From assembly GCA_041667205.1 (NCBI GenBank), contig JBAYFL010000008.1, positions 1-64,000 of the forward strand: a DNA stretch of 64,000 bases, given 5' to 3'. Made by a program: the position numbers and the translations under genes. The notes below the pieces were generated by a model. The model was not told the origin of the DNA, searched no databases, and was given only the letters and a program-made list of their open reading frames with translations. Origin of the DNA: Verrucomicrobiia bacterium. Lineage in GTDB: Bacteria > Verrucomicrobiota > Verrucomicrobiia > CAIQCK01. Positions 10,934 through 44,914 of this stretch are shown here, piece by piece. Within the stretch, counting starts at the first letter, position 1; the number at the start of each line of letters is the position of its first letter.

Positions 10934-11350
10934 TCAACCGGCCTGCTCGCGCGTCTCCATGCGTAGCAGCCAGACGCTCATCGCCAGCACCGCCATCTCC
11001 ACCACCAGCGTTGTCACGCCGAGCCGTCCGCTGAGCGGCCCGAAACAGCCGCACTCCGGCGACAAGCCGCGCGCCAGCGTCACCACGCCCGCCGCCAGAA
11101 AAACCACCGACATGCCCACCATCAGCGCCAGCGCGCCGGTGCGCCACCGCCCGATGACCGCCAGCACGCCGGCGACGACCTCCCACCACGGCAACAACAC
11201 CGCCACCGTCGGCACGAGCGCGTCCGGCAGCAGATCGTAGTCGGTGATGGCGCGGGCGAACGCAATCGGATCGGCGATCTTCAGCGCGCCCGCAACGATG
11301 TAGATGCCGCCGAGCAACCACAGCGCCACACGTGCCGCGAGAGTTTTCAT
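10934..11350 (-). CDS. MauE/DoxX-like membrane protein
   Basis: Four TM helices with a CGCFG motif in the last third, as in the MauE methylamine-utilisation family. It is the last gene downstream of the kinase operon. Confidence 0.55.
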   Translation of the reverse strand: MKTLAARVALWLLGGIYIVAGALKIADPIAFARAITDYDLLPDALVPTVAVLLPWWEVVAGVLAVIGRWRTGALALMVGMSVVFLAAGVVTLARGLSPECGCFGPLSGRLGVTTLVVEMAVLAMSVWLLRMETREQAG

Positions 11351-11409
11351 TTCGTGGCGCATTTCCGTGTTCGAGAAACACCCCTCGGAGTCGTTGTTTC
11401 GCCTCCAAC

Positions 11410-12546
11410 TCAACCCGGCGGCAGGGTGAACCAGAAGGTGCTGCCTTTGCCGACTTCGCTCTCGAGGCCGATCTGGCCGCCGTGGGTTTCGACGGCAAGT
11501 TTGCAGAAGGTCAGGCCCAGGCCGGTGGAGTGGCGGCGCGCTTCCTTGTCCACCTGGCCGAACTTCTCGAAAACCTTCTTATGATGCTCGGCCGGGATGC
11601 CGGGACCGGTGTCGGTCACGGCCACGCGCGCCATCGAGTCCTTGCGGCTGATGGTGACGGTGATCCGTCCGCCGTCGGGAGTGAACTTGACGGCGTTGCC
11701 AATGAGATTGGCGATGATCCGCTGGAGGACGTCTTTGTCGGCATGGACGCTGAGCGCGCCGGACTGAGACTCGATGCTGAGGCAGCGCTGGCCTTTGAGG
11801 ATGCTGAAGGTGTCCACGACGTCCTTGGCGATGGCGGCCACGTCGCACGCCTGGCGGTTCAGCGGCATCTCGCCGGCTTCCATGCGGCTGACATCCAACA
11901 GGGTGGTGACCATGTCGAGGAGCTTGGCGGTGTGTTTGCCGAGGATGTCAATGTAGCCGACTTCCGACGCGTTGAGCTTGGCGGCGACCTTGACTTTGAT
12001 GAGATCCACATAGCCCGCCATCATCGCCAGCGGCGAACGCAGATCGTGGACGACGAGGTGAACGAGGTTGTCGCGGAGGGTTTCGAGTTCGCGGAGGCGC
12101 TCGTAGTTTTCCTTGAGTTGGCGGTTCTGGCATTCGAGTTCCTTCTGGAGCTGCCGGAGCTTGAGGTGGGTCTCGACGCGGGCGTGGACTTCCTCGAACT
12201 GGAACGGCTTGGTGACGTAGTCCACGCCGCCGAGGCCGAACGCCTTGACCTTGTCCATGGTCTCGTTCAAGGCGCTGATGAAGATGACGGGAATGGAGGC
12301 GAGCTGCGGATCGGCTTTGAGGCGCTTGCAGACTTCGTAGCCGTTGATCTCCGGCATGTTGATGTCGAGGAGGATGAGGTCAGGCGGGTCGCTCTTGGCG
12401 GCCCGGAGGGCCATCTCGCCGCTGGGAACGGGACGGGCCTTGTAGCCGCGGCCTTTGAGCATGCCGTTGAGCAGTTGCAGGTTCTCCGGGGTGTCGTCCA
12501 CGACCAGGATGCTGGGGGTGGCGGCAGGAGTCGGTGTGGGTTGCAT
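11410..12546 (-). CDS. hybrid response regulator-histidine kinase (REC-HisKA-HATPase)
   Basis: N-terminal receiver (ILVVDDTPENL...DLILLDINMP...KPF), coiled coil, H-box VHDLRSPLA, and N/G boxes ([20 protein letters not shown]). Confidence 0.85.
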   Translation of the reverse strand: MQPTPTPAATPSILVVDDTPENLQLLNGMLKGRGYKARPVPSGEMALRAAKSDPPDLILLDINMPEINGYEVCKRLKADPQLASIPVIFISALNETMDKVKAFGLGGVDYVTKPFQFEEVHARVETHLKLRQLQKELECQNRQLKENYERLRELETLRDNLVHLVVHDLRSPLAMMAGYVDLIKVKVAAKLNASEVGYIDILGKHTAKLLDMVTTLLDVSRMEAGEMPLNRQACDVAAIAKDVVDTFSILKGQRCLSIESQSGALSVHADKDVLQRIIANLIGNAVKFTPDGGRITVTISRKDSMARVAVTDTGPGIPAEHHKKVFEKFGQVDKEARRHSTGLGLTFCKLAVETHGGQIGLESEVGKGSTFWFTLPPG

Positions 12547-12552
12547 GGTTTG

Positions 12553-14133
12553 TCAGGGCGCTTCCGGCTGCAGGAGATGCAGCAGCCGTTTGTAATCGAA
12601 CCGTTCCATCAACTGCCGCAACGCCCGCGCGAGCGCGGGATCACGCGGCTCAATGCGGGCGATGAGTTCCAGCAGGTGGTCGAGGTCGGCGTTGATGGCG
12701 GCGCGGCGCATCGCGTCCGTCAGGTCGCGTGGCAGGGCCGCCAACGCGGTGCGTTCGATCTTGGTGGTGGCGCTGGCGGGCGAGGGCGCGATGGTTTCGC
12801 CGGCATAGACATATTTCACGCTGAGGAATTCCCGGATGGTTTCCAGCAGCCGGCCCTCGCGGTAGGGTTTGATGATGAAATCGTCGGCGCCGGCGGCGAG
12901 GATGGCGTTGCGGCTCTCCTGGAAGGCGCTGGCGGTAACAACGATGATCCTGACCGGCGGGGCGTCGGGGCGGGAACGGATGCGGCGAATGACTTCGTAA
13001 CCGTCCACGACCGGCATGCGCAGGTCGAGGAGGATGAGGTCGGGGCGCCACTGCTCGTATAGACGCAGCGCCTCTTCGCCATCGGTGGCTTCCGACGTTT
13101 CAAACCCGACGGTTTTGAGCAGAGTGCGGAGCAGAGTGCGGTTGTCCTCAACGTCATCCGCAATGAGCACTCGATATGTGCGCTGACCCGGCTCCAGCCT
13201 CAGCACGTGACGCAGCTCAGTCTTCTGCGCAACCGCGGACGATTCGCCTTTGGCAATGGCAACATCGAACCGAAAAACGCTGCCTTTGCCGGTCTGGCTG
13301 GTCACGGTGATGTCGCCGCCCATGAGCCGGACGAACTCCCGGCTGATGGCCAGACCCAGGCCCGTGCCGCTGCCGGCGTGGCGTCCGGCGCGGGTCTGCT
13401 CGAACGGGTCGAACAGCCGCTCCATTTCCTCCGGCGCGATGCCCGGCCCGGTGTCCTCGACTTCGATTTTCAGGCGCAGGACGTTGCCTTCCATCGCCTG
13501 CGTCTGCGCACGCAGCGTGATGCCACCTTTATCGGTGAATTTTACGGCGTTGCCCATGAGGTTGATGATCACCTGACGCAGCTTGCTCTCATCGGTGACC
13601 ACGTAACGCGACACCTCGCCGACGCGCTCGATGGAGAAGCACAGTTGTTTGTCGTCGGTCCGCAGGCGGAACATCATCTCCACGTCGTGCAGAAACGCGT
13701 GCAAGTCGAAGGTCGTCGGGTTCAACGTCGTGCGACCGGCTTCGATCCGGGAGACTTCGAGGATGTCGTTGATGAGCGCCAGCAGGTGCTCGCCGCTGCG
13801 GTTGATGGTGTCGAGGTGCTGCCGCTGTTGCGGCGTGAGGACCGGATCGCGCTGCATCAACTGCGAAAAGCCGAGGATGGCGTTCATCGGCGTGCGGATC
13901 TCGTGCGACATGTTCGCCAGGAACACGCTCTTGGCGCGATTGGCCGCCTCGGCGGAGCGCTTGGCATCCTCGAGCTGCTGGATGGATTCCTCCAGCTTCT
14001 TCAGAGCTTTCTCGGCACGCTGCCGCTGGGTGTCGGCGTCCTGCATCATACTCAAAGCGATCCGGCGGGACTTCTCCGGGTCGCTTGAGCGGTCGTCGAG
14101 CCGCCGATCCATATTGTTAACGTTGGAAAGCAT
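12553..14133 (-). CDS. hybrid sensor histidine kinase/response regulator (HisKA-HATPase-REC)
   Basis: Coiled coil, then H-box [13 protein letters not shown] boxes, and a C-terminal receiver ([11 protein letters not shown]...[10 protein letters not shown]). Confidence 0.85.
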
Positions 14134-14148
14134 CGCGTCTCCGCTGGG

Positions 14149-15132
14149 TCACACCTTGCCGGGGCTGCTGGGCGCGCCGGCGGCGGGATTGTCGCGCCGC
14201 CAGACCGGAGGATAGGTGGGCGGACGGTTCAACTCACCGCAAAGCCGGTTCACTTCCTCCTTCAACTCGATCACACGCTCCTCGCGTCCGATCATGGCCC
14301 TGTAGAACGCTTCCAGTTCGGCGGTGCGCTCCTTGACCATTTCTTCGAGGTGATCGCGGTGCTGATTCAACTCATCCTCCGTCCGCTTGCGCTCCGTGAT
14401 GTCCTCAGCCACGGTGAGGATGCATCGCTCTCCACCAAACTCGATCATTTCCGCCGACAATCGCGCGACGTGCGGCTCGGCACGCTTGGAGCGGAAGCGA
14501 GCTTCCACATCGCGATAGCTTCCTTCAGTGATGAGTTTCCGGAAAGCCTGCTCCAGTTCCTGCGGATTGGCCCACAACTCTATTTCCGAGGTCGTCTGCC
14601 CGACCACTTCGTCGCGGCTGTAGCCGGTGTATTGCTCGAACGCCTTGTTGACCTCGATATACCGCCGGTCTTTGAGCGAGACGATGGTCATGATCGTCGG
14701 GCTGGCTTGGAACGCCTTGGAGAATTTCTCCTCGGACTTTTGCAGTTTCCCCTCCGCCTGATGTTTGTAGAGCGCCATCTCGATGACCGTCTTCAGTTCG
14801 CGGTCTTCGAACGGTTTGAGGATGTAACCGAACGGCTCCGTCACCTTCGCGCGCTGCAACGTCGTGTCGTCCGCGTAAGCCGTCAGATACACCACCGGCA
14901 AGTGCCACCGCTGGCGGACCTGCTGCGCGGCTTCGATGCCGTCCATCGCGCCCTCCAGCCGTATGTCCATCAGCACGAGGTCAGGCAGCAGTTGGCCGGC
15001 CAGCGTCAGCGCCTTCTCGCCACTGGGCGCCGAGCCGACCACCTGGCAGCCGAGCAGGTCCAGACGCACTTTCAGGTCGGCAGCCACGATCGGCTCGTCT
15101 TCAACAACTAGAATCCGGGGGTGACTATTCAT
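14149..15132 (-). CDS. response regulator with REC + PAS domains
   Basis: Receiver ILVVEDEPIVAADLK...LVLMDIRLEG...ILKPF, followed by a PAS/PAC region and a Pro-rich tail. It is the near-identical paralog of the N-terminus of the 21957..23087 gene. Confidence 0.8.
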   Translation of the reverse strand: MNSHPRILVVEDEPIVAADLKVRLDLLGCQVVGSAPSGEKALTLAGQLLPDLVLMDIRLEGAMDGIEAAQQVRQRWHLPVVYLTAYADDTTLQRAKVTEPFGYILKPFEDRELKTVIEMALYKHQAEGKLQKSEEKFSKAFQASPTIMTIVSLKDRRYIEVNKAFEQYTGYSRDEVVGQTTSEIELWANPQELEQAFRKLITEGSYRDVEARFRSKRAEPHVARLSAEMIEFGGERCILTVAEDITERKRTEDELNQHRDHLEEMVKERTAELEAFYRAMIGREERVIELKEEVNRLCGELNRPPTYPPVWRRDNPAAGAPSSPGKV

Positions 15133-15137
15133 AAATG

Positions 15138-18100
15138 TTACTCTCCCTGCTTGGCTTGAAACGCAATGTGAAAGGCAACGCCATGGTCTCGTGTAATCTC
15201 AACAGCACCACGCAACTTCTCCACCAACATGAACACCAACTGATGACCCAAGGTTCCGGTCTGGTGAACGTCCAACCCTGACGGCAGGCCCACGCCATCG
15301 TCGGCAACCCTCATAACGATCTGTTCCTGCGGCGTCGTCCGCAACTCGACTTCGATTCGCCCCGCCCGCCCGCCGGGAAACCCGTGTTTGAGCGCGTTGG
15401 AAACCAGTTCGTTGATGATGAGGCCGCACGAAACCGCGCGGTCCAGGTCAATGGCAACATCCTCCAGATGCGGCTCCAGCTTGATGTGCGCGGTCTTCGG
15501 TCCGTAGGAACGGAAGAGATGGCTGCAAATATTCTCGATGTAGTTGGCGAAATTCACGTGCGCCAGGTTCTGCGACCGGTAGAGCGTTTCATGCAACAGG
15601 GCCATGGAACGGACACGATTACCGGTTTCTTGCAAAGTGTCGAGCGCCGCTGTGTTCTTGGTGCGGACTGACTGGAGGCTCAGGAGGCTGATCACGATCT
15701 GGAGGTTGTTCTTCACGCGGTGGTGCACTTCCTTGAGGAGAACGGTTTTCTCCTCGAGGGAGGCCCGAATCTCCTCCTCCGCCCGTTTGTGGGCGGTGAT
15801 GTCGCGTGAAACGCCGACGAGACCGGTAATTTTCCCCGTCTTGTCACGCAACGGCACTTTGGTGGTGGACACCCAAGTCACACGGCCGTCCGGCCAGATT
15901 TCCTTTTCCTCCTTGCCCACCATGGACTCGCCCCGGGCTATCACGCGGCGTTCATCCTCAAGCGCCCCGCGCGCGTGCTCTGGCGCGAAGAAATCGGCAT
16001 CCGTCTTGCCCACGGCTTCGCTCGGATTGCGAAGGCCGAACGACCGGCTCATGGCCTCGTTGATCCGCACGAAGCGGCACTCCAAGTCCTTAAAGTAAAT
16101 GTTGTCGGGGATGGTCGTGATCAGGCTGTTGAGAAGGCTTCGTTCCTGTGCCAGCCCTGCCTCCACCCGCTTGCGTTCTGTGATGTCCTGAACCATCACA
16201 AGGTAATACATCGCCCGTCCTTGCTTGTCACGAATGACCGTGGCCACAGCCGAGCACCACACAATTTCCTTGTCCTTCCGGATGTAGCGCTCCTCTGTGC
16301 GATACACCGGAATATCTCCACGCAGGAGCTTCTCGACAGATTCCACGTCCTGTTTGAGGTGCTCTGGATGGGTAATATCCTTGGCGGTAAAGGAGGTAAG
16401 TTCTTCCTCGGTATAACCCAACATTTCGCAGAACGCGGCGTTGGCCTGGATATAGCGAAAATCCGCGCCCACAATGGCCATGCCGCTCGGGCCTTCTTCG
16501 AAGATCTGGCGGAAGCGTTCCTCGCTTTCGCGCAGCTTCTCTTCCGCGTGCTTGCGCTCGCTGATGTCCCGGCAGTCGGAGAGAATGGTTGGCTTGCCGT
16601 TGAGTTCGAACATGTCGGCGCTGATTTCGACCGGGATTCTCCGTCCGTCCTTGGCAACATGCACTCCTTCCCACAGGGCGTGCTTCTTCTCCTTGAGTTT
16701 CTCCATGATCGCAGGGACGAGAGGAATAAATTCGGGAGTGTCAATGTCGGAAAGGTTCTTCTGGACAAGCTCCTCGCGGCTGTAGCCCAGGCGCTGGCAG
16801 GCCACGTCGTTGACTTCGATGATTCTGCCTGGCAATCCATTGTCCCCCGGTCCCTCGGCGACAAACACCGCGTCATAGCTGCTGTTGAAGAGCAAACGGT
16901 ATCGCTCTTCGCTGGTCCGCAGCGCTTCCTCTGCCAGCTTGCGCCCGGTCACATCCCGGAAGCTCCACACCCGTCCCACCGGCCGGCCCTCGATGCATTG
17001 CGGCAGGGAATAGCGTTCAAAAACCCTGCCATCCTTGAATTCCAGCACGTCAAACCCGGTGACCTCAGGATGGGCATAGAGCTTCTGCACTTTGGCGATG
17101 AAGCCTTCCGGGTCTTTCAGTTGACCCAACATCAATTGGATCGCCTGTTGATCGCGGCCGGCAGTCATCAGATCGCGGTTTCTCCACTCAGGGATGAGAT
17201 CCTTTGGAACCCGCCACATACGGATGAACCGCTCGTTAAAATCCACAATCCGCCCTTGGGGATCCACCACCAAAATCCCGTCTGCTGTGGATTCCAAGGT
17301 GGCTTGCAGGAGCGAAACGGAATGACTGAGCGCCTGCTCTCGCTGCTTGCGCTCGGTGATGTCGCGGGCGATGTGGACGCTCCCGATGAGTTTCCCTTCC
17401 GAATCGCGCAGGGGCGAAACCGTTTCGAGGAAATCACCGCTCAGCCGACTCTCATGAGTTTCTGCGGAGTGCTCAAGACCATCCGCAAGCAATAGCCGGT
17501 GCGGGCAGAACTCCGGCGGATCGTCCACCCCATGGACAAGCGAATGGCACGTCTGCCCGATGCATTTGTTCAGCGTCAGGCCCAACTTGGCCGCCATGGA
17601 CCTGTTGGCGCGAACAATCCGATACTCGTTGTCGAGGATCGCGACAAGGTCCGGCACCGCGTCGAACGTCCGTTCCCAATCCTCTTTGGCTTGAAGGATG
17701 TCGTGTTCCGCCCGCTTTCGCTCGGTGATGTCGCGCGCAATGCTGGACGCGCCCACGATCTCGCCCGCAGCATTCCTGATCGGCGAGATGGTGACGGACA
17801 CGTCAATGATTTTCCCGTCCTTCTTCCGTCGCTTGGTCTCCAGGTGGGTGACGACCTCTCCGCGCTTGATCTTGTCCAGTATCTGCGGCAGTTCGTTGGG
17901 CCGGTCCGCCGGGACCAAAACGGAAAGGGGACATCCGACGATCTCCGCCGCCGCGTAACCGTAGAGCTTCTCCGCTCCCGGATTCCAATTCACGACAACG
18001 CCGTCAAGGGTTTTGCCAACGATGGCGTCTTCCGACGACTCGACGATGGCCGCCAGTCGCGAGATGACTCCTTCGGCCACCCGGCGTCCCCGCCGCATCT

Positions 18101-18473
18101 GCGCCTCCCGTATTTCCCGCTCCACGGCGGGCACGAGGCGGGCCAGATTGCTCTTCATCAGATAGTCGTGCGCGCCCGCCTTCATCATCGTCACGGCGGT
18201 GTCTTCACCAATGGCGCCGGAAACAATCAGAAACGGGATGTCCAGTTCGGCCTTTTGCAACAACGCGAGCGCGGAAGGAGCGTCAAACTGCGGCAGGGAA
18301 TAGTCGCAGATGATGACGTCCCACGATTGCCTGACCAGTGCTGTCTTCATCCCGGCAGCGTCTTCGACCCGTTCCGAACGAACTTCGTAGCCCGCCTTCT
18401 GCAACTTGCGAACCACCAAGTCCGCGTCGCTCTCCGAGTCTTCGATCATCAAGAGGCCGAGCGGCTTGGTCAT
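15138..18473 (-). CDS. multi-PAS sensor histidine kinase with N-terminal receiver (REC-PASn-HisKA_2/HWE-type-HATPase)
   Basis: Start taken at the internal ATG at 18473 (MTKPLGLLMIEDSESD), which gives an ATGA overlap with the upstream response regulator. There are several PAS/PAC repeats. The H-box is HHRVKNNLQIVISLLSLQ (HisKA_2-type) and the C-terminal ATPase is HWE/HATPase_c_2-like. Confidence 0.82.
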   Translation of the reverse strand: MTKPLGLLMIEDSESDADLVVRKLQKAGYEVRSERVEDAAGMKTALVRQSWDVIICDYSLPQFDAPSALALLQKAELDIPFLIVSGAIGEDTAVTMMKAGAHDYLMKSNLARLVPAVEREIREAQMRRGRRVAEGVISRLAAIVESSEDAIVGKTLDGVVVNWNPGAEKLYGYAAAEIVGCPLSVLVPADRPNELPQILDKIKRGEVVTHLETKRRKKDGKIIDVSVTISPIRNAAGEIVGASSIARDITERKRAEHDILQAKEDWERTFDAVPDLVAILDNEYRIVRANRSMAAKLGLTLNKCIGQTCHSLVHGVDDPPEFCPHRLLLADGLEHSAETHESRLSGDFLETVSPLRDSEGKLIGSVHIARDITERKQREQALSHSVSLLQATLESTADGILVVDPQGRIVDFNERFIRMWRVPKDLIPEWRNRDLMTAGRDQQAIQLMLGQLKDPEGFIAKVQKLYAHPEVTGFDVLEFKDGRVFERYSLPQCIEGRPVGRVWSFRDVTGRKLAEEALRTSEERYRLLFNSSYDAVFVAEGPGDNGLPGRIIEVNDVACQRLGYSREELVQKNLSDIDTPEFIPLVPAIMEKLKEKKHALWEGVHVAKDGRRIPVEISADMFELNGKPTILSDCRDISERKHAEEKLRESEERFRQIFEEGPSGMAIVGADFRYIQANAAFCEMLGYTEEELTSFTAKDITHPEHLKQDVESVEKLLRGDIPVYRTEERYIRKDKEIVWCSAVATVIRDKQGRAMYYLVMVQDITERKRVEAGLAQERSLLNSLITTIPDNIYFKDLECRFVRINEAMSRSFGLRNPSEAVGKTDADFFAPEHARGALEDERRVIARGESMVGKEEKEIWPDGRVTWVSTTKVPLRDKTGKITGLVGVSRDITAHKRAEEEIRASLEEKTVLLKEVHHRVKNNLQIVISLLSLQSVRTKNTAALDTLQETGNRVRSMALLHETLYRSQNLAHVNFANYIENICSHLFRSYGPKTAHIKLEPHLEDVAIDLDRAVSCGLIINELVSNALKHGFPGGRAGRIEVELRTTPQEQIVMRVADDGVGLPSGLDVHQTGTLGHQLVFMLVEKLRGAVEITRDHGVAFHIAFQAKQGE

Positions 18474-18925
18474 TGCGACCTCACTTTCGGCGGCGGCTCG
18501 TTCAAGCCCTGCCAATACGCGCCCAACAGTTTGATGGCGGCGTCGAACTGCACAAAATCCACCTGTTTGCGGATGTAGCTGTTGACGCCGAGATCGTAGG
18601 CGGCCGCCACATCCTGTTCTTCCTTCGAGGAGGTGAGGATGATCACGAGCAGACGGCGGGTGCGCTTGTTGGCGCGGACCCGGCGCAAGACCTCCAAGCC
18701 GTCCACTTTGGGCAGCTTGAGATCGAGCAAGATCAGGACGGGCAGTTGGGACACGTCACGCCCAGCGTGCATGCCGCCTCCGAACAGGTAATCCAGCGCC
18801 TCCTGGCCATCCTCGACCACCACGAGTTTGCTGGTGATGCAAGCCCGTTGCAGCGCCCGCTGGGTCAGAGCGACATCGCTCGGATTATCTTCGACAAGCA
18901 AGATGGTTTCTGACGTATCACTCAT
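18470..18925 (-). CDS. single-domain response regulator (CheY-like receiver)
   Basis: 151 aa: ILLVEDNPSDVAL...LILLDLKLPKVDGLEVL...KPVDF. ATGA overlaps at both ends. Confidence 0.85.
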   Translation of the reverse strand: MSDTSETILLVEDNPSDVALTQRALQRACITSKLVVVEDGQEALDYLFGGGMHAGRDVSQLPVLILLDLKLPKVDGLEVLRRVRANKRTRRLLVIILTSSKEEQDVAAAYDLGVNSYIRKQVDFVQFDAAIKLLGAYWQGLNEPPPKVRSQ

Positions 18926-21390
18926 GACGTTTCATCCAGCGTGAAGTAGAAAGTTGTGCCCTGATTCACCTGCGCCTCGGCCCATATCCGGCCTCCGTGG
19001 CGCTGAATGATGCGCTGCACGGTGGCCAGTCCAATGCCTGTGCCCGGAAATTCCGAGGCTTTGTGCATGCGTTGAAACGCGCCAAACAGTTTCTTGGCGA
19101 AAGCCATATCAAAACCCGCGCCATTGTCACGCACGAAATAGGCCGGGCGGTCCTTCACATACGTCAGCCCAAACTCAATGCGTGCCGCAGGCCGCTTGCT
19201 GGTAAACTTGACGGCGTTACCCAGCAGGTTGGTCAGCGCGATCCTCAGCAACCGCTCATCGCCCTGGCCCGTCAGCCCCTGCTGGATCACAAACTCCAGT
19301 TGCCGGTGCGGCAAGTCTTCCTGCAACCGGAGGACGATGCTCTCTGCCAGACCGGTAAGGTCCACGGGATTCGGCCGCATCTCGGCGCGAGTCACGCGGG
19401 ACAGCTTCAGCAGGTCGTCAATCAACTGGCCCATGCGTTGTGTTTCAGCACGGATGCGGCTCAGGTATTGGCGCGCACGCTCGTCCAGCCGCCCACTGTA
19501 GTCCTCCAACAACGCCAAGCTCCAGCCGTCAATGCCGCGCAACGGCGCCGTCAGGTCGTGCGACACCGAGTAAGCGAAGCTTTCCAACTCTTGGTTGGCG
19601 ACGGCAAGCTGGATGGTGCGATCCGCCACGCGTTGCTCCAGTTCCGTGTTGAGTTTGCGGATCTCCTCTTCCGCCAGTTTGCGGCCGGTAATGTCGAAGT
19701 TCACGCCCACGACATTGGTGACCTGACCTTTCTCGTCGGCGATCACACTCGCGGCCGCCTGGATGTGGCGGACCGTGCCGTCGCTCGCGCGAATGATGCG
19801 AAAGTTGAAGTATCCCGCCTTCTTCTCTGTGACAGCCCGGCGCATCTGGCGTTCGACCTGGGTCACGTCTTCCGCGTGGATCATCTCCGCCCATCGCGGG
19901 TAGGTCATGGGTTCTGTCATGAGAAGGCCATACATCTCGAACATCCGGTCGTCCCATGTGACCGCGTTGGAGATGACATCCCATTCCCAAACGCCCATCA
20001 CCGCGGCCTCAGTGGCCAGCGCCAGACGATGGCTGTAGGCCCGCAACTCTTGCTCCGCCTGTTTGCGCTCGGTGATGTCCACCAGAATGGACGCGATGAT
20101 GCCGGGGCCGGTCCGGAAAACGCGCACGTCGTAGAACCCGAAAACGCGCTCGTCCTTGTAGGGCATTTCGAAAGCCTGCGGTCCCAGTTCACCCCGGGCC
20201 ACTTTGCGGTGGATTTCAAGGATCTCCGTGTCCCGGAGGTTTGGGAACACTTCCTCGATTGTTTCTCCGACCAAATTCCGGTGATCCCTGCCGATGATGC
20301 GTCCGGCCGCCGGATTCGTTCCGGTGAGCAACAAACGCGAGTCGGATTCAAGGCGGTAGAAGTGCATCGCCGCGGGTGAAGATTCCACGATACTGCGGAA
20401 CTTCTCTTCCGACTCCCGCAGTGCTTCCTCAGCCCGTTGGCGTTCTGTAATCTCTTGCTTCAGTCCGTCGTTGGCCCGCGCCAAATCGGCGGTGCGCTCC
20501 AGAACACGGTGTTCCAGCGAGGCTTGCATCGTCCGCAACTGTTCAAACAGTTTGTCGAAGGCGACGCTGAGCACGTCAATCTCGTCACGCTCGTCCATCT
20601 CCTGCGGCGTCATCCGCGAAATCTCTGACGTGGCAGCGATTTCCCGGATGTGCCGCGCCATCAGCGACAACCGCCGCGACACCACGAGGTGGAACGCAAT
20701 GATGATCAGCCCGAACAGGAAGGCCAGCCACGTGGCCATGACCATCTGTTTCCAGCTCATCTCGGAAGCCATGGCCAAAGCCACCGTTTCAACGGGGATC
20801 GCAACCGTATCCAGTCCCGCCACGTCCCCGACCTCCCGGTGGAAGCCCGCCGTCGCGCCATATTGCTTCACCAACGCGGCGGGTGCGTCCTTCGGGTCGC
20901 CGTGGCAGCGCATACATTCCGCTTTCATCCGCCGAACCTTGAACTGCGCGACATAGCGCTGGCCGTTGATCTGAATCTGTTCGGTCTTCTGGCTGACTGT
21001 GGGGTTTCGGCGGAAGAAATCAATGGCCTGCAGTTCTTGCGGGGTGGCCTGATTGACCGGATTGCGTGGATTGTCGGAGACAAAACGAACGATGTAGCCG
21101 GGAAACTTCTTCTGGACTTTCTCGAAGACGCTTTGCGAGACGAACATGGGCGACATCATTTCGGGGATGTATTCCTTATTGCCCACAATCCTCTGGATGA
21201 CCGGGTGCATTGTCTCGGAAACGTATTCGCGGATGGCCAGGTTGAACTCCATCGCCATCGCTGCCTGCTGGCCAACCCGGTCGCTGGCGTGATGCTGACT
21301 CGTCACGTAGGTTTCGCGAAAAATAAAAATCGAGAACAGGATGGCGACGATGCCAAACGGCAGGAGAAACCGCATCGCGATGCTTCTCAT
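18922..21390 (-). CDS. sensor histidine kinase with periplasmic CXXCH (heme-c, Tll0287/DUF3365-like) sensor domain, PAS domains, HisKA, HATPase
   Basis: An N-terminal TM helix, then an extracytoplasmic domain of about 190 aa containing KAECMRCHGDPKD (CXXCH), then a second TM helix, HAMP-like and PAS/PAC modules, H-box SHDLTAPLRGI, and N/G boxes. Confidence 0.8.
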   Translation of the reverse strand: MRSIAMRFLLPFGIVAILFSIFIFRETYVTSQHHASDRVGQQAAMAMEFNLAIREYVSETMHPVIQRIVGNKEYIPEMMSPMFVSQSVFEKVQKKFPGYIVRFVSDNPRNPVNQATPQELQAIDFFRRNPTVSQKTEQIQINGQRYVAQFKVRRMKAECMRCHGDPKDAPAALVKQYGATAGFHREVGDVAGLDTVAIPVETVALAMASEMSWKQMVMATWLAFLFGLIIIAFHLVVSRRLSLMARHIREIAATSEISRMTPQEMDERDEIDVLSVAFDKLFEQLRTMQASLEHRVLERTADLARANDGLKQEITERQRAEEALRESEEKFRSIVESSPAAMHFYRLESDSRLLLTGTNPAAGRIIGRDHRNLVGETIEEVFPNLRDTEILEIHRKVARGELGPQAFEMPYKDERVFGFYDVRVFRTGPGIIASILVDITERKQAEQELRAYSHRLALATEAAVMGVWEWDVISNAVTWDDRMFEMYGLLMTEPMTYPRWAEMIHAEDVTQVERQMRRAVTEKKAGYFNFRIIRASDGTVRHIQAAASVIADEKGQVTNVVGVNFDITGRKLAEEEIRKLNTELEQRVADRTIQLAVANQELESFAYSVSHDLTAPLRGIDGWSLALLEDYSGRLDERARQYLSRIRAETQRMGQLIDDLLKLSRVTRAEMRPNPVDLTGLAESIVLRLQEDLPHRQLEFVIQQGLTGQGDERLLRIALTNLLGNAVKFTSKRPAARIEFGLTYVKDRPAYFVRDNGAGFDMAFAKKLFGAFQRMHKASEFPGTGIGLATVQRIIQRHGGRIWAEAQVNQGTTFYFTLDETS

Positions 21391-21484
21391 AGTCCAACCT
21401 CCTCAACATCCGCAATCACCCGGCGGAATGGCCACGTCATTGCAACTCGAAACATTTCCACGACTCTCCATGTGGCGCCATGAG

Positions 21485-21934
21485 CTACTGTTTCCATTTG
21501 GGCAACGGCAACTCGTTCAGCAACAGCCAGTAAAAACCCAGTTGCTGGACAGCTTCCGTGAATTCGGTGAAGTCCACCGGTTTGCGAACGTAACTGTTCG
21601 CGCCCAAGCTGTAGCTCTGGGTCAGGTCTTGCTCTTCCTGCGACGAGGAAAGAATGACGACTGGCAGGAGCCGGGTCCGCTCATCGGCGCGGATGCGGCG
21701 GAGCACGTCCAACCCCGATACCTTGGGCAGCTTCAGGTCCAAAAACACGACCGCAGGCATCTGGGTCGTGTCGCGTTTGGCGTGGACGCCGGTGCCATAG
21801 AGATAGTCCAAGGCCTCGGCCCCGTCCCTCACCACCACGAGCTTGTTGATCAGGTTGATCTTGGTGAACACGCGTTTGACAAGTTGTTCGTCGTCAGCGG
21901 TGTCCTCGACCAAAAGGATCGTTGTGCCTTTCAT
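21485..21934 (-). CDS. single-domain response regulator (CheY-like receiver)
   Basis: 149 aa and a paralog of 18470..18925 (ILLVEDTADDEQL...VVFLDLKLPKVSGLDVL). Confidence 0.85.
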   Translation of the reverse strand: MKGTTILLVEDTADDEQLVKRVFTKINLINKLVVVRDGAEALDYLYGTGVHAKRDTTQMPAVVFLDLKLPKVSGLDVLRRIRADERTRLLPVVILSSSQEEQDLTQSYSLGANSYVRKPVDFTEFTEAVQQLGFYWLLLNELPLPKWKQ

Positions 21935-21956
21935 GTTGTTGACTCCTTCCTATGTG

Positions 21957-23087
21957 TCATGCCGGTGGAGGCAAGGTAAAGAAAAACGTCGCGCCCTGAC
22001 CCAGCGCGCCCTCCGCCCGCACCTTGCCGCCGTGCCGGTGAATGATGCGTTGCACCGTGGCCAGGCCGATGCCCGAACCGGGAAACTCGCTGGTGGTGTG
22101 CAACCGCTGGAACGCGCCGAAGAGTTTGTCCGCGTAGGCCATCTCGAAACCCGCGCCATTGTCGCGGACGAAATACTCGGTCGGGCCTTCCGCCTGACGC
22201 GAGACACCAAACTCGACGCGGGCACTGGCCTGCTTGCCCGTGAACTTCCATGCGTTGTCCAGCAGGTTCTCCAACGCCACCCGCAGCAGACGTTCATCGC
22301 CAATGACTTCCAGCCCGGCCGGGCAGCGAAACTCGACCTCGCGTTTCGGCCCGCGCTCGCGAAGCTCCGCCACGACCGTCTGCGCCAGCGCGCTCAGGCT
22401 GACCTTCTCCCGGCGCATTTCCCTGCGCGACGTGTGGGAGAGCGCCAGCAAGCCGTCTATCAACTGGCCCATGCGCTGGGCTGCCGCCCGGATGCGCTGA
22501 AGGTAATCCTTCGCCTGCTGGTCGAACTTGTCGCCCCAGTCATCGAGCAGCGCCTTGCTGAAACCGTCCATCGCCCGCAGCGGCGCCCGCAAATCGTGCG
22601 AGACCGAGTAGGAAAACGACTCGATCTCTTTCATCGCGGTCTGCAATTCCGACGTGCGTTCGAGGACGCGCTGTTCGAGCGTCTCGTTCAACCGACGGAT
22701 TTCTTCCTCCGTCTGATGTTTGTAGAGCGCCATTTCGATAACCGTCTTCAATTCGCGGTCTTTGAACGGTTTGAGAATGTAACCGAACGGCTCCGTCACC
22801 TTGGCCCGCTCCACCGTCGTGTCATCCGCGTAGGCCGTCAGATACACCACCGCCAGATGCCACCGCTGCCGCATCTGCTGCGCTGCCTCGATGCCGTCCA
22901 TCGCCCCTTCCAACCGGATATCCATCAACACCAAGTCGGGCAACATTTGTCCCGCCAGCGTCAAGGCTTTCTCGCCACTGGACGCTGAGCCGACCACCTT
23001 GCAGCCCAGCATCTCCAGACGCATCTTCAGGTCGGCCGCCACGATGGGCTCGTCTTCAACAACCAGGACTCGCGCTTGCTCATTCAT
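21957..23087 (-). CDS. hybrid response regulator-histidine kinase (REC-HisKA-HATPase)
   Basis: The receiver is nearly identical to that of 14149..15132, and is followed by H-box SHDLRAPLRAM and N/G boxes. It overlaps the upstream kinase stop by 4 nt. Confidence 0.85.
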   Translation of the reverse strand: MNEQARVLVVEDEPIVAADLKMRLEMLGCKVVGSASSGEKALTLAGQMLPDLVLMDIRLEGAMDGIEAAQQMRQRWHLAVVYLTAYADDTTVERAKVTEPFGYILKPFKDRELKTVIEMALYKHQTEEEIRRLNETLEQRVLERTSELQTAMKEIESFSYSVSHDLRAPLRAMDGFSKALLDDWGDKFDQQAKDYLQRIRAAAQRMGQLIDGLLALSHTSRREMRREKVSLSALAQTVVAELRERGPKREVEFRCPAGLEVIGDERLLRVALENLLDNAWKFTGKQASARVEFGVSRQAEGPTEYFVRDNGAGFEMAYADKLFGAFQRLHTTSEFPGSGIGLATVQRIIHRHGGKVRAEGALGQGATFFFTLPPPA

Positions 23088-25417
23088 AAACGTTCTTCTC
23101 CGTATTTTGCCTGAAACGCGATGCGAAAGACAGTCCCTTGATTCTGGCCCACATCCACCGTGCCGTGCAACTTCTCCGCCAGCATGAACACCAACTGATG
23201 ACCCAGAGTGCTCGTCTGGCGGATATCCTGTCCCGGAGGCAAGCCCACGCCGTCATCAGCAACCTTCAAAACAACATGGCCTTCCGGTGTCGCCTGCAAT
23301 TCGACCGCGATCTTCCCAGGTCGTCCGCCGGGAAAGGCGTGTTTCAGCGCGTTGGAAACCAGTTCGTTAACGATCAGGCCGCAAGAGACCGTCTGGTCCA
23401 AGTCAATGGCTACGTTCTCCAAATGTGGCTCCAGCTTGATATGCGCTGCCTTCGGCCCGTAGGAGCGAAAGAGGTGGCTGCATACATCCTCGATGTAGTG
23501 GGCGAAGTTCACTCGCGCCAGGCTTTGCGAAAGGTAAAGCGTTTCATGCAGCAGGGCCATCGAGCGGACGCGATTGGCGGTTTCCTGCATGGCATCGAGC
23601 GCCTCCGGGTTCTTGATGCGCACGGCATGGAGGTTCAGGAGGCTGATCACGATTTGAAGGTTATTCTTCACGCGGTGATGCACCTCTTTCAAGAGGACGG
23701 TCTTCTCCTTGAGAGAAGCCCGGATCGCATCCTCCGCCCGCTTCTGTTCGGTAATGTCCTGCACGGTGCCCGCGGATCGAATGGGCCGGCCTTGTGAATC
23801 ATAGAAGGTTTCCGCCCGCTCGCGGACATGTTTCACCCGACCATCCGGCATGAGCAGACGATGCGTGATGTCGTAGGGGATCTTGTTGTTGACCGAATCA
23901 TCGAAGGTCTGTTGAACCATTTCCCTGTCTTCCGGGTGGACTGCCTTCCGAAACACCTCATACAATGCACCGGGAACCCCGTGGTCCACCTCGAAAATGC
24001 GATAGATCTCATCCGTCCAGATCAGCTTGCTGGTGACGAGGTCCGCCTCCCAACTGCCGATGTGTCCGATGCGCTGGGCTTCAATCAGGCGCGCTTCGCT
24101 CGTCCGTAACGCCTCCTCAACCCGCTTGCGCTCGGTGACGTCGCTCAACACACCATCCGTGCTCATCAGATGCCCCTCCTCACAAACCGGCATCCAGCGG
24201 TCTTCGATGCACTTCAGAGTTCCGTCTTTGCAGCGCCACCATTCCTCGTCACGAATCGCGACCCTGTCCGCCGGCTGCAGTTTCAACTGCTCAAACCGTC
24301 TCTTCTGCTCGTCAAATCTTCCCTTGTAGATCACCCGTGACAAGAAAACGACGCGCCCTCCCATGTTCTGGATGTCTTCCAAGGTGTATCCGAACATCTT
24401 CTCAAACGCCGGGCTGAGGTAGCGAAACTCGTGCGTCCGCGCATCCACGCTGTAGATCGCATCCTCAATGTGCGCGGCGATTCGTTGGAACTTCTCCTCA
24501 CTCTCGCGCAACGCCGCCTCAATCCGCTTGCGATCGGTGATGTTGAACAGCGTGGTCCGGCTCGCCACAAAGTTGCCCTTGTCATCCTGAATGGCCGTCG
24601 AGTTCAGCAACACCGGCAGCACCGTGCCGCCTTTCCGAATCAACTCCGTCTCGATGTCGCTAACCCACCCGCGCTCCTTCAGCACGGGAAATGTCCGCTC
24701 GTAAACCTGCAAGCCCGCGGGCGTGAGCAGGTCGGTCAGTTTCATCTTCCCGACGACCTCCTCCCGTTCATACCCGATCCACTTGAGTTCGGTGTCATTG
24801 ATCCGGATGAAGACGCCCTCTTTGTCCAGCGAGTGATAGCCGCACGGCGCGTTGTCGTAGAGGTCCTGGATAACCCGGGACGATTCCTTCAGCAGTTCCT
24901 CCGCCTGCTTGCGTTCGGTGATGTCCTGGACCGTGCCGATGAACCGCGTGGGCCGGCCCGTCACAGAATCACAAACGAACTCGGCATGTTCGTGGACGAT
25001 GCGCCCCGCCCCGTCGGGACGCAGAATGCGGTGTTCAACATCATAGCGTTTATGTTCGCGGAGCGCCGTTTGGACTTCGGCCCACACCCTGGCCCGATCT
25101 TCCGGCGCAATGGCGTTGCCAAACAATTCATGTGTCACCTGCACCGCGCCCGGCTCGTAACCGAAAATGCGGAACGTTTCATCCGACCACCACAGCGAAT
25201 TCTGCGAGAAGTCATCCGGGTTTCGCAACTCCGCCTCCCAACTGCCCACGTGCGCGATGCGTTGCGCGGCGGCCAGGTGGGTTTCGGTGCGGCGCACTGC
25301 CTCCTCGGCTCGCTTGCGTCTGGAAAACCCCTTCTTAATCTTGAAGGCTGCCCGGTTCGGTCGAGACGAAGGAGTCTCTCGCAAAACGCTTCCGCCGGCT
25401 TTGGATGAAGCCTTCAT
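23084..25417 (-). CDS. multi-PAS sensor histidine kinase (HisKA_2/HWE-type), paralog of 15138..18473
   Basis: PAS/PAC repeats, then HHRVKNNLQIVISLLNLH and a C-terminus about 85% identical to the other PAS kinase. The start is uncertain: the ATG at 25417 is chosen to avoid overlapping the divergent GH78 gene, though the ORF extends to 25783. Confidence 0.75.
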   Translation of the reverse strand: MKASSKAGGSVLRETPSSRPNRAAFKIKKGFSRRKRAEEAVRRTETHLAAAQRIAHVGSWEAELRNPDDFSQNSLWWSDETFRIFGYEPGAVQVTHELFGNAIAPEDRARVWAEVQTALREHKRYDVEHRILRPDGAGRIVHEHAEFVCDSVTGRPTRFIGTVQDITERKQAEELLKESSRVIQDLYDNAPCGYHSLDKEGVFIRINDTELKWIGYEREEVVGKMKLTDLLTPAGLQVYERTFPVLKERGWVSDIETELIRKGGTVLPVLLNSTAIQDDKGNFVASRTTLFNITDRKRIEAALRESEEKFQRIAAHIEDAIYSVDARTHEFRYLSPAFEKMFGYTLEDIQNMGGRVVFLSRVIYKGRFDEQKRRFEQLKLQPADRVAIRDEEWWRCKDGTLKCIEDRWMPVCEEGHLMSTDGVLSDVTERKRVEEALRTSEARLIEAQRIGHIGSWEADLVTSKLIWTDEIYRIFEVDHGVPGALYEVFRKAVHPEDREMVQQTFDDSVNNKIPYDITHRLLMPDGRVKHVRERAETFYDSQGRPIRSAGTVQDITEQKRAEDAIRASLKEKTVLLKEVHHRVKNNLQIVISLLNLHAVRIKNPEALDAMQETANRVRSMALLHETLYLSQSLARVNFAHYIEDVCSHLFRSYGPKAAHIKLEPHLENVAIDLDQTVSCGLIVNELVSNALKHAFPGGRPGKIAVELQATPEGHVVLKVADDGVGLPPGQDIRQTSTLGHQLVFMLAEKLHGTVDVGQNQGTVFRIAFQAKYGEERL

Positions 25418-25565
25418 TGGGTTCCGCAGGTTGCCATGCGCTAGCCTTAACGAAAACGAAAAAACGGCAAGCTTAATCTGCCTGTCGTTTCCGGCCGGCT
25501 TGTTTCGCGCTCCCTTGTCTTCCGTCGGATTGACTTGGCAAAGGCGGGCGGGTATTCGATGAAGC

Positions 25566-28010
25566 ATGAAGCTTGGCATCTTACGATACTTCGTGTTGGT
25601 CTTCTCTCTGGCCACGTCCATATCATGCTCGTTGTCCGCTGCGGTCGGCGACGCAACTGCGCCATCGTTTGTCGCGGCCAGACCGATCTGGCCGAAGGGG
25701 CGTGAGACGGAGAAGAATCTGTTCGTCGGATTTCGCGCCAGCTTCCAAGCACCGGCCAAGGGGCGCGTGTGGCTGCGCGCCACAGGCTCGACGTTGTATC
25801 GGGTATGGCTGAACGGCGAGTTCCTCGCGCACGGGCCGGCCCGCGCGGCGCACGGCTTCTATCGCGTGGACGAACTCGACATCACGAGCCGGCTCAAGCC
25901 CGGCGCGAACCTCGTTGCGCTCGAGGTCGCCGGCTACAACGTGAACAGCTTCTACCTGCTCGACCAGCCGTCGTTCCTGCAAGCGGAGGTGGTCGCCGAC
26001 GGCAAGGTGCTGGCGAGCACCGGCGGCGCGGGCTGGGCGTTTGAGGCGACGGTGCTGCGCGAGCGCGTGCAGAAGGTGCAGCGTTATAGCTTTCAGCGGC
26101 CGTTCACGGAGGTCTATCGCCTCGCGCCGAGCTGTGATGCTTGGCGACGGGATGCGGCGGCGCGTGTGGAAACGGCGAAGTGCGCGGTGATGCCGGCGAA
26201 GGCGTTGCTGCTGCGGCGGATCGCGCAGCCGGACTACGTGCTGCGCCAGCCGTCGTGGCGCGTGTCGGGCGGCGAGTTGCGGACCGGCGTGACGGTGGCG
26301 AAGCCTTGGAAGGACCGTTCGCTCACCGGCATCGGGCCGAAGCTCGGCGGTTATCTCGAAAAGGAGTTGGAGACGATTCCGTCGCTGGAATTGCAAACCG
26401 TCGCCAACGCCAGCAGCACGCCGATCAACCAGCCGTATGCGCCCGGCCAGTCGCTGTCGCTGCGCGCGAACGGCTACGAGATCGCCGACTTCGGCTGCAA
26501 CCTCACCGGCTTCATCGGCGCGCGCGTCAACTGCCGCGGCAAGACGCGGCTCGTGCTCGCTTTCGACGAGATTCTTTCCAACGGCGACGTGGACTTCAAA
26601 CGGCTGGGCTGCGTCAACGCCGTTGTCTGGGAACTGGAGCCGGGCAGCTACGAACTGGAGTCGTTCGAGCCTTACACGCTGCGTTACCTGAAGCTCATGT
26701 CGCTCGGCGGCGATTGCGCCGTGGAGCGGCTCTGGCTGCGCGAGTTTGTCTCCGCGGGCGTCGGCCAGGCGCAGTTCGCGGCAAGCGACGAGCGGTTCAA
26801 CCGCCTCTTCGCGGCCGGGCGCGAGACGTTCCGCCAGAACTCGCTCGACATCTTCATGGATTGCCCGTCGCGCGAGCGGGCGGGCTGGCTCTGCGACAGC
26901 TTCTTCACGGCGCGCGTGGCGCTCGACCTCTGCGGCGACACGCGGATCGAGCGATGCTTCCTGGAGAACTTCCAGTTGCCGGCGAAGTTCGTGCATCTGC
27001 CGGATGGGATGCTGCCGATGTGCTATCCGGCCGACCATTACAACGGCCAGTTCATCCCGAACTGGGCGCTCTGGTTCGTCGTGGAACTGGACGAATACCT
27101 TGCCCGCAGCGGCGACCGCGCGCTCGTGGACGCGTTGCGCGGGCGTGTGCTGAAGTTGTTCGAGTTCTTCAAGCAATACCGCAACGAGGACGGCCTGCTG
27201 GAGAAACTGCCGAGCTGGGTCTTCGTCGAGTGGAGCAAGGCCAACAGCTTCGTGCAGGACGTGAACTATCCGTCGAACATGCTCTACGCCGCCGCGATGG
27301 CCGCTGCCGGCCGGATGTATGGCGTCGAGGACATGGTGCGCGAGGCCGGGCGCATCCGCGAGACGGTTCGCAAGCAGTCGTTCGACGGCGAGTTCTTCGT
27401 GGACAACGCCGTGCGCAAGGACGGCAAGCTCGCCGTCACGCGCAACCGCACGGAGGTCTGCCAATACTTCGCCTTCTTCTTCGACGTGGCCTCGCCGCAG
27501 TCGCACGCGAAGCTCTGGCGGACGCTCGTGACCGACTTCGGCCCGCAGCGCAAGCAGACCAAGGCCCACGCCGACGTGCATCCGGCGAACGCGTTCATCG
27601 GCAACGTGCTGCGGCTGGAACTGCTCTCGCGCAACGGCCTCTGCCAGCAACTGCTCGACGAGTCGCTCGCCTACCATCTCTACATGGCCGACCGCACCGG
27701 CACGCTCTGGGAGAACGACGGCGCCTACGCAAGCTGCAACCACGGATTCGCCTCGCACTGCGGCGTCCACGTGCTCTACCGCGACGTGCTCGGCCTGCAC
27801 GACGTGGACACGGTGAAGAAGACGGTCGCGCTGCGGTTCAGCGACTTGAAGCTCGACTGGTGCGAAGGCGTTCTCCCGACGCCGGACGGCCCGGTGACGC
27901 TGCGCTGGCGCAAGGACAGCGGCAAGCTCCTCTACCAACTCACAACACCCGCCGGCTACGCCGTCACGGTGAAAAACCTCAGCGCCCTCGAACTAGTCCG
28001 ACAACCGTGA
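25566..28010 (+). CDS. alpha-L-rhamnosidase family glycoside hydrolase (GH78-like), secreted
   Basis: Signal peptide MKLGILRYFVLVFSLATSISC, and an (alpha/alpha)6 catalytic-domain signature DCPSRERAGWLCD typical of Bac_rhamnosid6H. 814 aa. Confidence 0.72.
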   Translation: MKLGILRYFVLVFSLATSISCSLSAAVGDATAPSFVAARPIWPKGRETEKNLFVGFRASFQAPAKGRVWLRATGSTLYRVWLNGEFLAHGPARAAHGFYRVDELDITSRLKPGANLVALEVAGYNVNSFYLLDQPSFLQAEVVADGKVLASTGGAGWAFEATVLRERVQKVQRYSFQRPFTEVYRLAPSCDAWRRDAAARVETAKCAVMPAKALLLRRIAQPDYVLRQPSWRVSGGELRTGVTVAKPWKDRSLTGIGPKLGGYLEKELETIPSLELQTVANASSTPINQPYAPGQSLSLRANGYEIADFGCNLTGFIGARVNCRGKTRLVLAFDEILSNGDVDFKRLGCVNAVVWELEPGSYELESFEPYTLRYLKLMSLGGDCAVERLWLREFVSAGVGQAQFAASDERFNRLFAAGRETFRQNSLDIFMDCPSRERAGWLCDSFFTARVALDLCGDTRIERCFLENFQLPAKFVHLPDGMLPMCYPADHYNGQFIPNWALWFVVELDEYLARSGDRALVDALRGRVLKLFEFFKQYRNEDGLLEKLPSWVFVEWSKANSFVQDVNYPSNMLYAAAMAAAGRMYGVEDMVREAGRIRETVRKQSFDGEFFVDNAVRKDGKLAVTRNRTEVCQYFAFFFDVASPQSHAKLWRTLVTDFGPQRKQTKAHADVHPANAFIGNVLRLELLSRNGLCQQLLDESLAYHLYMADRTGTLWENDGAYASCNHGFASHCGVHVLYRDVLGLHDVDTVKKTVALRFSDLKLDWCEGVLPTPDGPVTLRWRKDSGKLLYQLTTPAGYAVTVKNLSALELVRQP

Positions 28011-44901: not shown

Positions 44902-44914
44902 CGCATTCTCCTTC

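Follow-up and report, generated by a model that had tools for sequence, protein, structure and literature searches.

A probable heme-c sCache_heme sensor histidine kinase in a multi-kinase gene cluster of a Verrucomicrobiia bacterium

The kinase gene and its sensor domain

The stretch of DNA analysed in this work, hereafter the window, comprises 64,000 nucleotides (nt) of a Verrucomicrobiia bacterium (assembly GCA_041667205.1, contig JBAYFL010000008.1, positions 1-64,000). Ten consecutive same-strand genes lie on its reverse strand between 10934 and 25783, nine for signalling proteins and one for a MauE-family membrane protein, with six kinases or hybrid kinases and six receiver domains among them (Table 1). 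One of these genes encodes a protein that we regard, with high confidence, as a sensor histidine kinase carrying a c-type heme in a periplasmic sCache_heme domain (the heme kinase from here on). Its open reading frame (ORF) starts with ATG and runs for 822 codons, the stop being included in the coordinates; a ribosome-binding site, GAGGAGG, lies 7-8 nt 5' of the start, and the start codon is kept in six related loci. The predicted protein consists, in this order, of a first transmembrane helix (TM1), a periplasmic domain of 187 amino acids (aa), a second transmembrane helix (TM2), a weak HAMP, two PAS domains, and the HisKA and HATPase_c domains of the kinase core.

Table 1. Features of the heme kinase, from its N-terminus on, and of the other genes of the cluster, from upstream to downstream (REC, receiver domain).
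Feature	Coordinates	Strand	Basis
sCache_heme sensor histidine kinase (probable), whole gene, 822 aa	18922..21390	-	ORF and translation, Pfam architecture, orthologs
TM1 or uncleaved signal anchor, residues 7-25 (RFLLPFGIVAILFSIFIFR)	21316..21372	-	Hydropathy peak and two N-terminal positive charges
Predicted periplasmic sCache_heme (Tll0287-like/DUF3365) sensor domain, residues 26-212	20755..21315	-	PF11845, 5B82 match, AlphaFold2
Met79-Ser80 dyad, candidate distal heme-pocket residues or sixth ligand	21151..21156	-	Invariance in subfamily
CMRCH heme-c attachment motif, residues 159-163 (C159, C162, putative proximal ligand H163)	20902..20916	-	Translation, invariance, AlphaFold2
TM2, residues 216-237	20680..20745	-	Hydropathy; four positive charges after the segment
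HAMP-like linker, residues 237-286, sub-threshold	20533..20682	-	PF00672 E=0.0031, 18.2 bits against a cut-off of 25
PAS-A, residues 358-441	20068..20319	-	PAS_9 E=2.6e-4, 21.7 bits, below the cut-off of 27
PAS-B, residues 461-571	19678..20010	-	PAS_3 E=2.8e-15 (477-564), PAS E=5.8e-9, PAS_4 E=1.7e-10
HisKA dimerisation/phospho-acceptor domain, residues 603-666; His611 at 19558-19560	19393..19584	-	PF00512 E=9.7e-13
HATPase_c catalytic domain, residues 710-821	18928..19263	-	PF02518 E=1.3e-22
PAS x4-HisKA_2-HATPase kinase	23084..25783	-	Pfam; true start probably downstream of 25783
REC-HisKA-HATPase kinase, first gene of the conserved cluster	21957..23087	-	Pfam, synteny
Upstream stand-alone receiver, 149 aa	21485..21934	-	Pfam; BLASTP 58% identity to the 151-aa receiver
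Stand-alone receiver, 151 aa, probable cognate response regulator	18470..18925	-	Response_reg E=9e-18
REC-PAS x5-6-HisKA_2-HATPase hybrid kinase	15138..18473	-	Pfam; start taken at ATG 18473; syntenic in L001-L005 and L021
REC-PAS protein, conserved C-terminal GREERVIELKEEVN tail	14149..15132	-	Pfam, motif scan
HisKA-HATPase-REC hybrid kinase, C-terminal extension of ~90 aa	12553..14133	-	Pfam; NCBIfam below-threshold TorS/BarA-like only
REC-HisKA-HATPase kinase	11410..12546	-	Pfam
MauE-family membrane protein, last gene of the cluster	10934..11413	-	PF07291 E=2.6e-25, 89.6 bits against a cut-off of 27

The sensor domain matches the Pfam family Tll0287-like (PF11845) with an E-value of 4e-33 (115.3 bits against a cut-off of 24.1), the match extending over residues 33-199 of the protein and positions 2-144 of the 144 in the profile. 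Tll0287 of Thermosynechococcus elongatus (PDB 5B82), the founding structure, was the sole significant solved relative by sequence (E=1.4e-5, with the CXXCH motifs aligned). We then compared structures with an AlphaFold2 model of residues 1-256, whose mean pLDDT was 84.8; 5B82 was again the best Foldseek match of the sensor model (E=9.3e-9, target TM-score 0.71, over all 161 residues), and the next ones were Cache-type sensors, namely WalK, GSU0935, LuxQ, CHASE4, dCache domains and DcuS. The motifs RNP, YG/YP and GD are common to the sensor of the heme kinase and Tll0287-type proteins (hhalign probability 98.9-99.3), and Tll0287 itself has CXXCHG, (K/D)x(R)NP and Y(G/P)...GD in common with it. 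The model has CXXCH on a short helix, residues 157-163, which is flanked by strands 144-154 (beta3) and 190-199 (beta4). A helix insertion with CXXCH at this place is the defining feature of sCache_heme, as the DUF3365/Tll0287 family was renamed on its reclassification from PAS-like to Cache (Deshpande, Xing, Gumerov, Crane, Zhulin, Feb 2026; bioRxiv 10.64898/2026.02.01.703092).

The CMRCH motif lies within KAECMRCHGDPKD (residues 156-168), and C159 and C162 are the only cysteines among the 822 residues of the heme kinase. An alignment of 31 sensor domains with 21-82% identity shows no exception at these two positions or at H163, nor at S80, D106, P108, N110, N113, P166, P170 and Y177. When the comparison was extended to 142 more representatives, one per 50%-identity cluster and all among the best 150 of 4,850 profile matches, the CXXCH motif, M79, S80, N110, N113 and F183 were found in every one. 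Only four CXXCH motifs occur in the window, when the ORFs of 80 aa or more in all six frames are counted, and the presence of CMRCH in the heme kinase is evidently not a matter of chance. We infer from the motif and its invariance that heme is attached to the sensor domain; in the family as a whole, CXXCH is 99% conserved and both tested proteins carry heme c (bioRxiv 10.64898/2026.02.01.703092).

As for topology, the heme kinase has exactly two hydrophobic segments of transmembrane strength (Kyte-Doolittle, 19-residue window, >1.6), at about residues 7-25 and 216-237, and in the AlphaFold2 model one unbroken helix, residues 4-69, spans the first of them. Since TM2 leads directly into the HAMP-like helix and the kinase core, which are necessarily cytoplasmic, residues 26-212 are predicted to be extracytoplasmic; the flanking hydrophobic segments, the positive-inside pattern of charges, and the position of HAMP and kinase after TM2 all point to this location.

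A preliminary description of this DNA, read from the sequence alone, had proposed a domain of about 190 aa with CMRCH as heme-c attachment motif, placed between two transmembrane helices and belonging to the PAS-like DUF3365/Tll0287 heme-c sensors. That reading correctly picked out a periplasmic heme-c sensor kinase: the span between the hydrophobic segments is 187 aa, the motif holds the only cysteine pair and is invariant in homologs, and the family search that had been suggested as a check gave a PF11845 match well above the cut-off. By hydropathy, the CXXCH sits between the two transmembrane helices and not in a cytoplasmic segment. The fold label is what has to change, since the family is now classed as Cache.

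The cytoplasmic part has the features of a class I (HisKA) sensor histidine kinase, and its kinase boxes are intact, with H611 in SHDLTAPL followed by NLLGNAVKF (N), DNGAG (G1), FGAF (F) and GTGIGL (G2). TIGR00229 sensory_box spans residues 325-449, and no NCBIfam equivalog reached its cut-off for this protein.

A profile search of 1.84 billion representative proteins returned 4,850 clusters at E<=1e-3, of which 917 remained at E<=1e-30, and in nearly all of the best 150 of the 4,850 the domain occupies approximately residues 26-211 of long multidomain proteins. Among 58 full-length representatives, HATPase_c was present in 40, HisKA and PAS in 38 each, a receiver in 30 and HAMP in 22, the latter being significant matches at the linker position of the heme kinase. 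The sCache_heme-PAS-HisKA-HATPase arrangement is the usual layout in the subfamily and the commonest among the closest representatives; histidine kinases have also been described among the most frequent fusion partners of sCache_heme (bioRxiv 10.64898/2026.02.01.703092). Five orthologs, all of 822 aa and with 83-91% identity, were found in metagenome-assembled genomes (MAGs) of Verrucomicrobia, whose sources include a lake water column (LacPavin sample) and groundwater. Their sensor domains are 81-88% identical, similar to the kinase core, and this suggests purifying selection on the sensor domain as on the core. The heme kinase is an uncharacterised but ordinary example of an abundant known family, and it places a Verrucomicrobia member in the newly defined sCache_heme.

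Some database matches resemble short sCache_heme-HAMP proteins because kinase genes were called in pieces. We considered the short homolog matches (<=430 aa) as HAMP-only receptors and dropped the idea, as they are mostly kinase genes split by frameshifts in long-read assemblies. At the homolog loci L021-L026, which come from metagenome assemblies, the kinase gene is often called in two or three pieces, a sensor fragment and the remainder, and at L025 a transposase lies between the sensor fragment and the next kinase-type gene.

The distal heme site and the signal

Tll0287 is a soluble stand-alone protein of ~190 aa with Cys68/His145 axial ligation of the heme, the cysteine lying in a conserved VCKPVG. 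The heme kinase, in contrast, is anchored by two helices and fused to a kinase, and the axial cysteine has no counterpart in it; there is no third cysteine and no equivalent of VCKPVG. It is thus neither stand-alone nor provided with an axial cysteine, the two marks of the Tll0287-type 'Cluster 1'. With its fusion to signalling modules and no axial cysteine, it appears by both sequence-level criteria to belong to the signalling-linked class, sCache_heme 'Cluster 2'. We tried to map Cys68 onto the heme kinase and abandoned the attempt: the local profile-profile alignment covers residue 96 onward only, a forced global alignment put Cys68 opposite S85 with near-zero confidence, and ungapped extrapolation led to F83, the N-terminal helices of the two proteins giving no reliable alignment. 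The orthologs in L002 and L004 have a third cysteine (GFCRG) where the heme kinase has His184 (GFHRE). Position 184 is variable even among close orthologs, which have H, Y, C or N there, and His184 is therefore an improbable heme ligand.

Met79 is our candidate for the sixth heme ligand. Its invariance and that of Ser80 in the 142 representatives extends to all 58 full-length proteins; Met79 is replaced by Leu in two distant GGDEF-linked homologs among the 31 aligned sensor domains. The Met-Ser dyad, a candidate distal-pocket or sixth-ligand element, is the one small new point of this analysis and a concrete target for mutagenesis, and neither 'Met' nor 'methionine' occurs in the preprint defining sCache_heme (bioRxiv 10.64898/2026.02.01.703092).

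Two chemoreceptors of Geobacter sulfurreducens, GSU0582 and GSU0935 (3B47/3B42), have been placed in the same family as sCache_heme (bioRxiv 10.64898/2026.02.01.703092). As is predicted for the heme kinase, they have one c-type heme in a periplasmic PAS/Cache-like domain between two transmembrane helices. Their distal ligand is labile, either water or Met60. The heme of GSU0935 has as its ligands His144 and Met60, which are 84 residues apart, exactly as H163 and M79 are, and reduction brings about a change from high spin to low spin attributed to Met binding. Both proteins bind nitric oxide (NO) and carbon monoxide (CO) by displacing the Met, so that a Met ligand would be compatible with gas sensing. 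Unlike the heme kinase, they signal through a methyl-accepting chemotaxis protein output, and they have no sequence similarity to it at E<=10; their crystal structures are domain-swapped dimers. We tried to link Met79 to Met60 by sequence and gave this up, as even a domain-only profile found no match to 3B42/3B47 at that threshold; the fold match of GSU0935 to the sensor model is weak (E=8.9e-3, TM-score 0.37).

The reading that we favour, with moderate confidence, is that of an sCache_heme kinase with a labile distal ligand which responds to NO or to redox and relays the signal into a multi-kinase network. The protein would be a dimeric class-I histidine kinase, with one heme c held covalently by C159 and C162 and with H163 as proximal ligand, whereas the distal site would lack the cysteine of the stand-alone Tll0287-type proteins and would be occupied by a labile ligand, water or Met79. 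The coordination of the heme would be altered when a diatomic gas binds, NO being the most likely, or when the heme changes its redox state, and this alteration would be transmitted through TM2 and the HAMP-like linker to modulate autophosphorylation at His611. The phosphoryl group would pass to the 151-aa receiver first and then into the multi-kinase network (REC-PAS-HisKA_2, REC-PAS and hybrid kinases), which has no DNA-binding output within the cluster. What the sensor responds to, what serves as sixth ligand and where the phosphoryl group is transferred are all inferred. Together with its translationally coupled receiver, the heme kinase would be a reasonable model for the control of a classical kinase by a ligand of heme c.

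As the primary signal we tentatively propose NO, by analogy with the CHH receptor of P. azotoformans. This receptor resembles the heme kinase in having TM1, a periplasmic sCache_heme domain with CXXCH, TM2, a HAMP-type linker, no axial cysteine and a fusion to signalling machinery, the two being likened by description and not by aligned sequences (bioRxiv 10.64898/2026.02.01.703092, 10.64898/2026.05.25.727664). It differs in that it stops after HAMP and signals via a separate Ser/Thr kinase, whereas the heme kinase has two PAS domains, its own HisKA/HATPase_c and a stand-alone receiver downstream. The membrane-bound, Cys-less, HAMP-linked protein of P. azotoformans binds NO tightly, with a dissociation rate constant (koff) of ~6e-4 s-1, and forms no stable O2 complex (bioRxiv 10.64898/2026.02.01.703092), and NO alters the downstream kinase output of the CHH receptor through HAMP more than a redox change alone (bioRxiv 10.64898/2026.05.25.727664). 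A stand-alone Cys/His sCache_heme protein, from P. putida, behaves as redox-type (bioRxiv 10.64898/2026.02.01.703092).

Redox as the primary signal of the heme kinase seems to us rather unlikely, yet it is the main rival of NO. In that case Met79 would be a ligand of the ferrous, low-spin heme; in the ferric heme it would have come off or given way to water, and the switch would drive the transmembrane signal, as proposed for GSU0582/GSU0935. The Met79-Ser80 dyad, as invariant as CXXCH in the representatives and the full-length proteins, fits this idea well, as do the His-Met spacing and the spin change of GSU0935, the place of this protein among the fold matches, and the lake and groundwater origin of related MAGs. 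However, in the sole signalling-linked system tested, oxidation or reduction of the heme alone changed the output less than NO, and the equivalence of Met79 and Met60 is not established, given the missing sequence match and the weak fold match. Moreover, the residue is Leu in two distant members of the family, and the Geobacter proteins bind NO and CO as well, by displacing the Met. Heme-based O2 sensors are common. The preliminary description had offered redox or O2/NO/CO sensing, and of these O2 is the least likely, because the tested signalling-linked member binds NO and forms no stable O2 complex. Direct O2 sensing via a stable oxy-ferrous complex, like that of the cytoplasmic FixL or DosP, thus appears very improbable, both tested sCache_heme proteins having undergone autoxidation and produced superoxide with no stable O2 complex (bioRxiv 10.64898/2026.02.01.703092). 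We give hardly any credence to a heme that is structural or absent, with the Cache pocket binding a small molecule (an organic acid or amine) as in CitA and DcuS. The Cache-like fold, and the ligand-binding Cache domains DcuS, LuxQ, PacA and TlpA among the weaker fold matches, would suit such a function, and the canonical sCache kinases WalK, CitA and DcuS have the same TM-sCache-TM-(HAMP/PAS)-HisKA-HATPase layout, WalK and DcuS being among the fold matches. These kinases, however, have no cofactor, bind small molecules and are without the CXXCH helix insertion between beta3 and beta4. Throughout the subfamily there is no exception to CXXCH or to the proximal His, the family-wide conservation of CXXCH and the heme c of both tested proteins argue in the same direction, and the heme fills the pocket region in Tll0287 (described in bioRxiv 10.64898/2026.02.01.703092).

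Several points weigh against the favoured reading, that of a heme kinase responding to NO or redox through a labile distal ligand. The literature searched holds no experiment on the heme kinase or on any sCache_heme histidine kinase, and the assignment of NO derives from one characterised protein with another output (HAMP only, Ser/Thr kinase), likened by description. The HAMP match is below the Pfam threshold, and the topology is a prediction from hydropathy, positive-inside charges and architecture. No genes for cytochrome c maturation or nitrogen-oxide metabolism were found in the 64-kb window or beside four distant homologs. The invariant Met79, finally, is reminiscent of the His/Met switch in the heme sensors of Geobacter, and these have been interpreted as redox sensors. 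A speculative extension, to which we assign a low probability, is that Met79-Ser80 could mark a His/Met-ligated class of sCache_heme, in which the Met displaced by NO/CO or by oxidation is the switch, and not the water inferred as ligand for the P. azotoformans protein. The sensor, then feeding a nine-gene multi-kinase network that is without transcription-factor output and ends at a MauE-type protein, might couple the periplasmic heme state to envelope redox functions.

The gene cluster and the receiver partner

The heme kinase gene is the fourth locally, being preceded by three same-strand signalling genes and then a 94-bp gap, and it is the third of a conserved nine-gene core: REC-HK (HK, histidine kinase), REC, heme kinase, REC, REC-PAS-HK, REC-PAS, HK-REC, REC-HK and MauE. 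This core is syntenic in the related loci L001-L003; L004, L005 and L021 have the same order, but there the sequence ends or the MauE match is missing before the last gene. The PAS x4-HisKA_2 kinase at 23084..25783 was found in L001 and L005 only, with alignments from residue 92 or 123. No DNA-binding or enzymatic output domain was found in the ten genes of 10934-25783. No other transmembrane sensor kinase is encoded in the cluster, and the heme kinase is therefore plausible as its sole extracytoplasmic input. It had been described as heading the relay, but its gene does not come first, three signalling genes lying upstream.

The stop codon of the heme kinase overlaps the start codon of the 151-aa receiver in ATGA, and a second ATGA joins this receiver to the REC-PAS-HisKA_2 kinase. 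At the Chloroflexi locus L007 a related kinase core is followed directly by a 72%-identical receiver, and this adjacency supports the heme kinase and the 151-aa receiver as a cognate pair. The H-box region of the REC-HisKA kinase at 21957-23087 is similar to that of the heme kinase. This similarity and the 58% identity of the two stand-alone receivers suggest that a kinase-plus-receiver module was duplicated.

Within the 94-bp gap upstream of the heme kinase (21391-21484, reverse strand) there is an element conserved across seven loci, with the consensus GTGGAAACGTTTC...TGTGACAAC, which shows neither a terminator nor a spacing recognisable as that of sigma-70 or sigma-54. Consensus scans for a promoter or terminator in this gap stayed at background, and GTGGAAACGTTTC as a sigma-54 promoter was dropped for its wrong spacing; the element could be an internal promoter or an operator.

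At the other end of the cluster, the MauE-family protein has four hydrophobic segments, and its gene overlaps the preceding one by 4 nt and is syntenic in L001-L003. The preliminary description had seen in this gene a fit to redox sensing. The gene is real, as judged by its Pfam match, but its association with the heme kinase is confined to close Verrucomicrobia relatives; since it is absent from four distant homolog loci, it gives no independent support for a redox role. A search of the rest of the window found no further MauE gene.

The tail of the REC-PAS protein (14149-15132, reverse strand) reads, near 14289, GREERVIELKEEVNRLxxELNRPxxYPP. The same motif, in the form GRE.R[MV]IELK.EVN.LL..LG, is also C-terminal in several kinase-less sCache_heme-HAMP proteins (P0018, P0023, P0025 and P0043). 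No Pfam family was found for this tail, which may be a small output or interaction module common to these systems.

Other genes of the window

Besides the cluster, the window encodes sulfatases, a rhamnosidase, a trehalose synthase/phosphatase fusion, other two-component genes, a Ser/Thr kinase and ParB. A 771-aa ORF (25623-27938, reverse strand) lies antisense to a real alpha-L-rhamnosidase gene (25566-28010, forward strand; Bac_rhamnosid6H, E=8e-18). Tblastn gave 69-83% identity for this ORF in related loci; it looks conserved because its frame is carried along with the rhamnosidase gene, and it is a conserved shadow ORF in GC-rich DNA.

The Ser/Thr protein kinase gene (28718-30361, forward strand; Pkinase, E=2e-52) lies ~7 kb from the heme kinase, and at locus L026 two more Ser/Thr kinase genes (4946-5968 and 15751-16758) flank a distant sCache_heme kinase. 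The sCache_heme-HAMP receptors have been linked to Ser/Thr kinases (bioRxiv 10.64898/2026.05.25.727664), and the presence of such genes near sCache_heme kinases may be a coincidence or a looser association.

In the products of two adjacent genes on the reverse strand (40009-41307 and 41385-42569), a receiver domain is joined to a ParA/BcsQ-like P-loop ATPase. The region from 43411 to 60751 contains four sulfatase genes (44915-46804, 49547-51301, 54442-55890 and 59363-60751) and several large ORFs with no Pfam match. This sulfatase region is characteristic of Verrucomicrobia that degrade polysaccharides and agrees with the taxonomy assigned from related MAGs.

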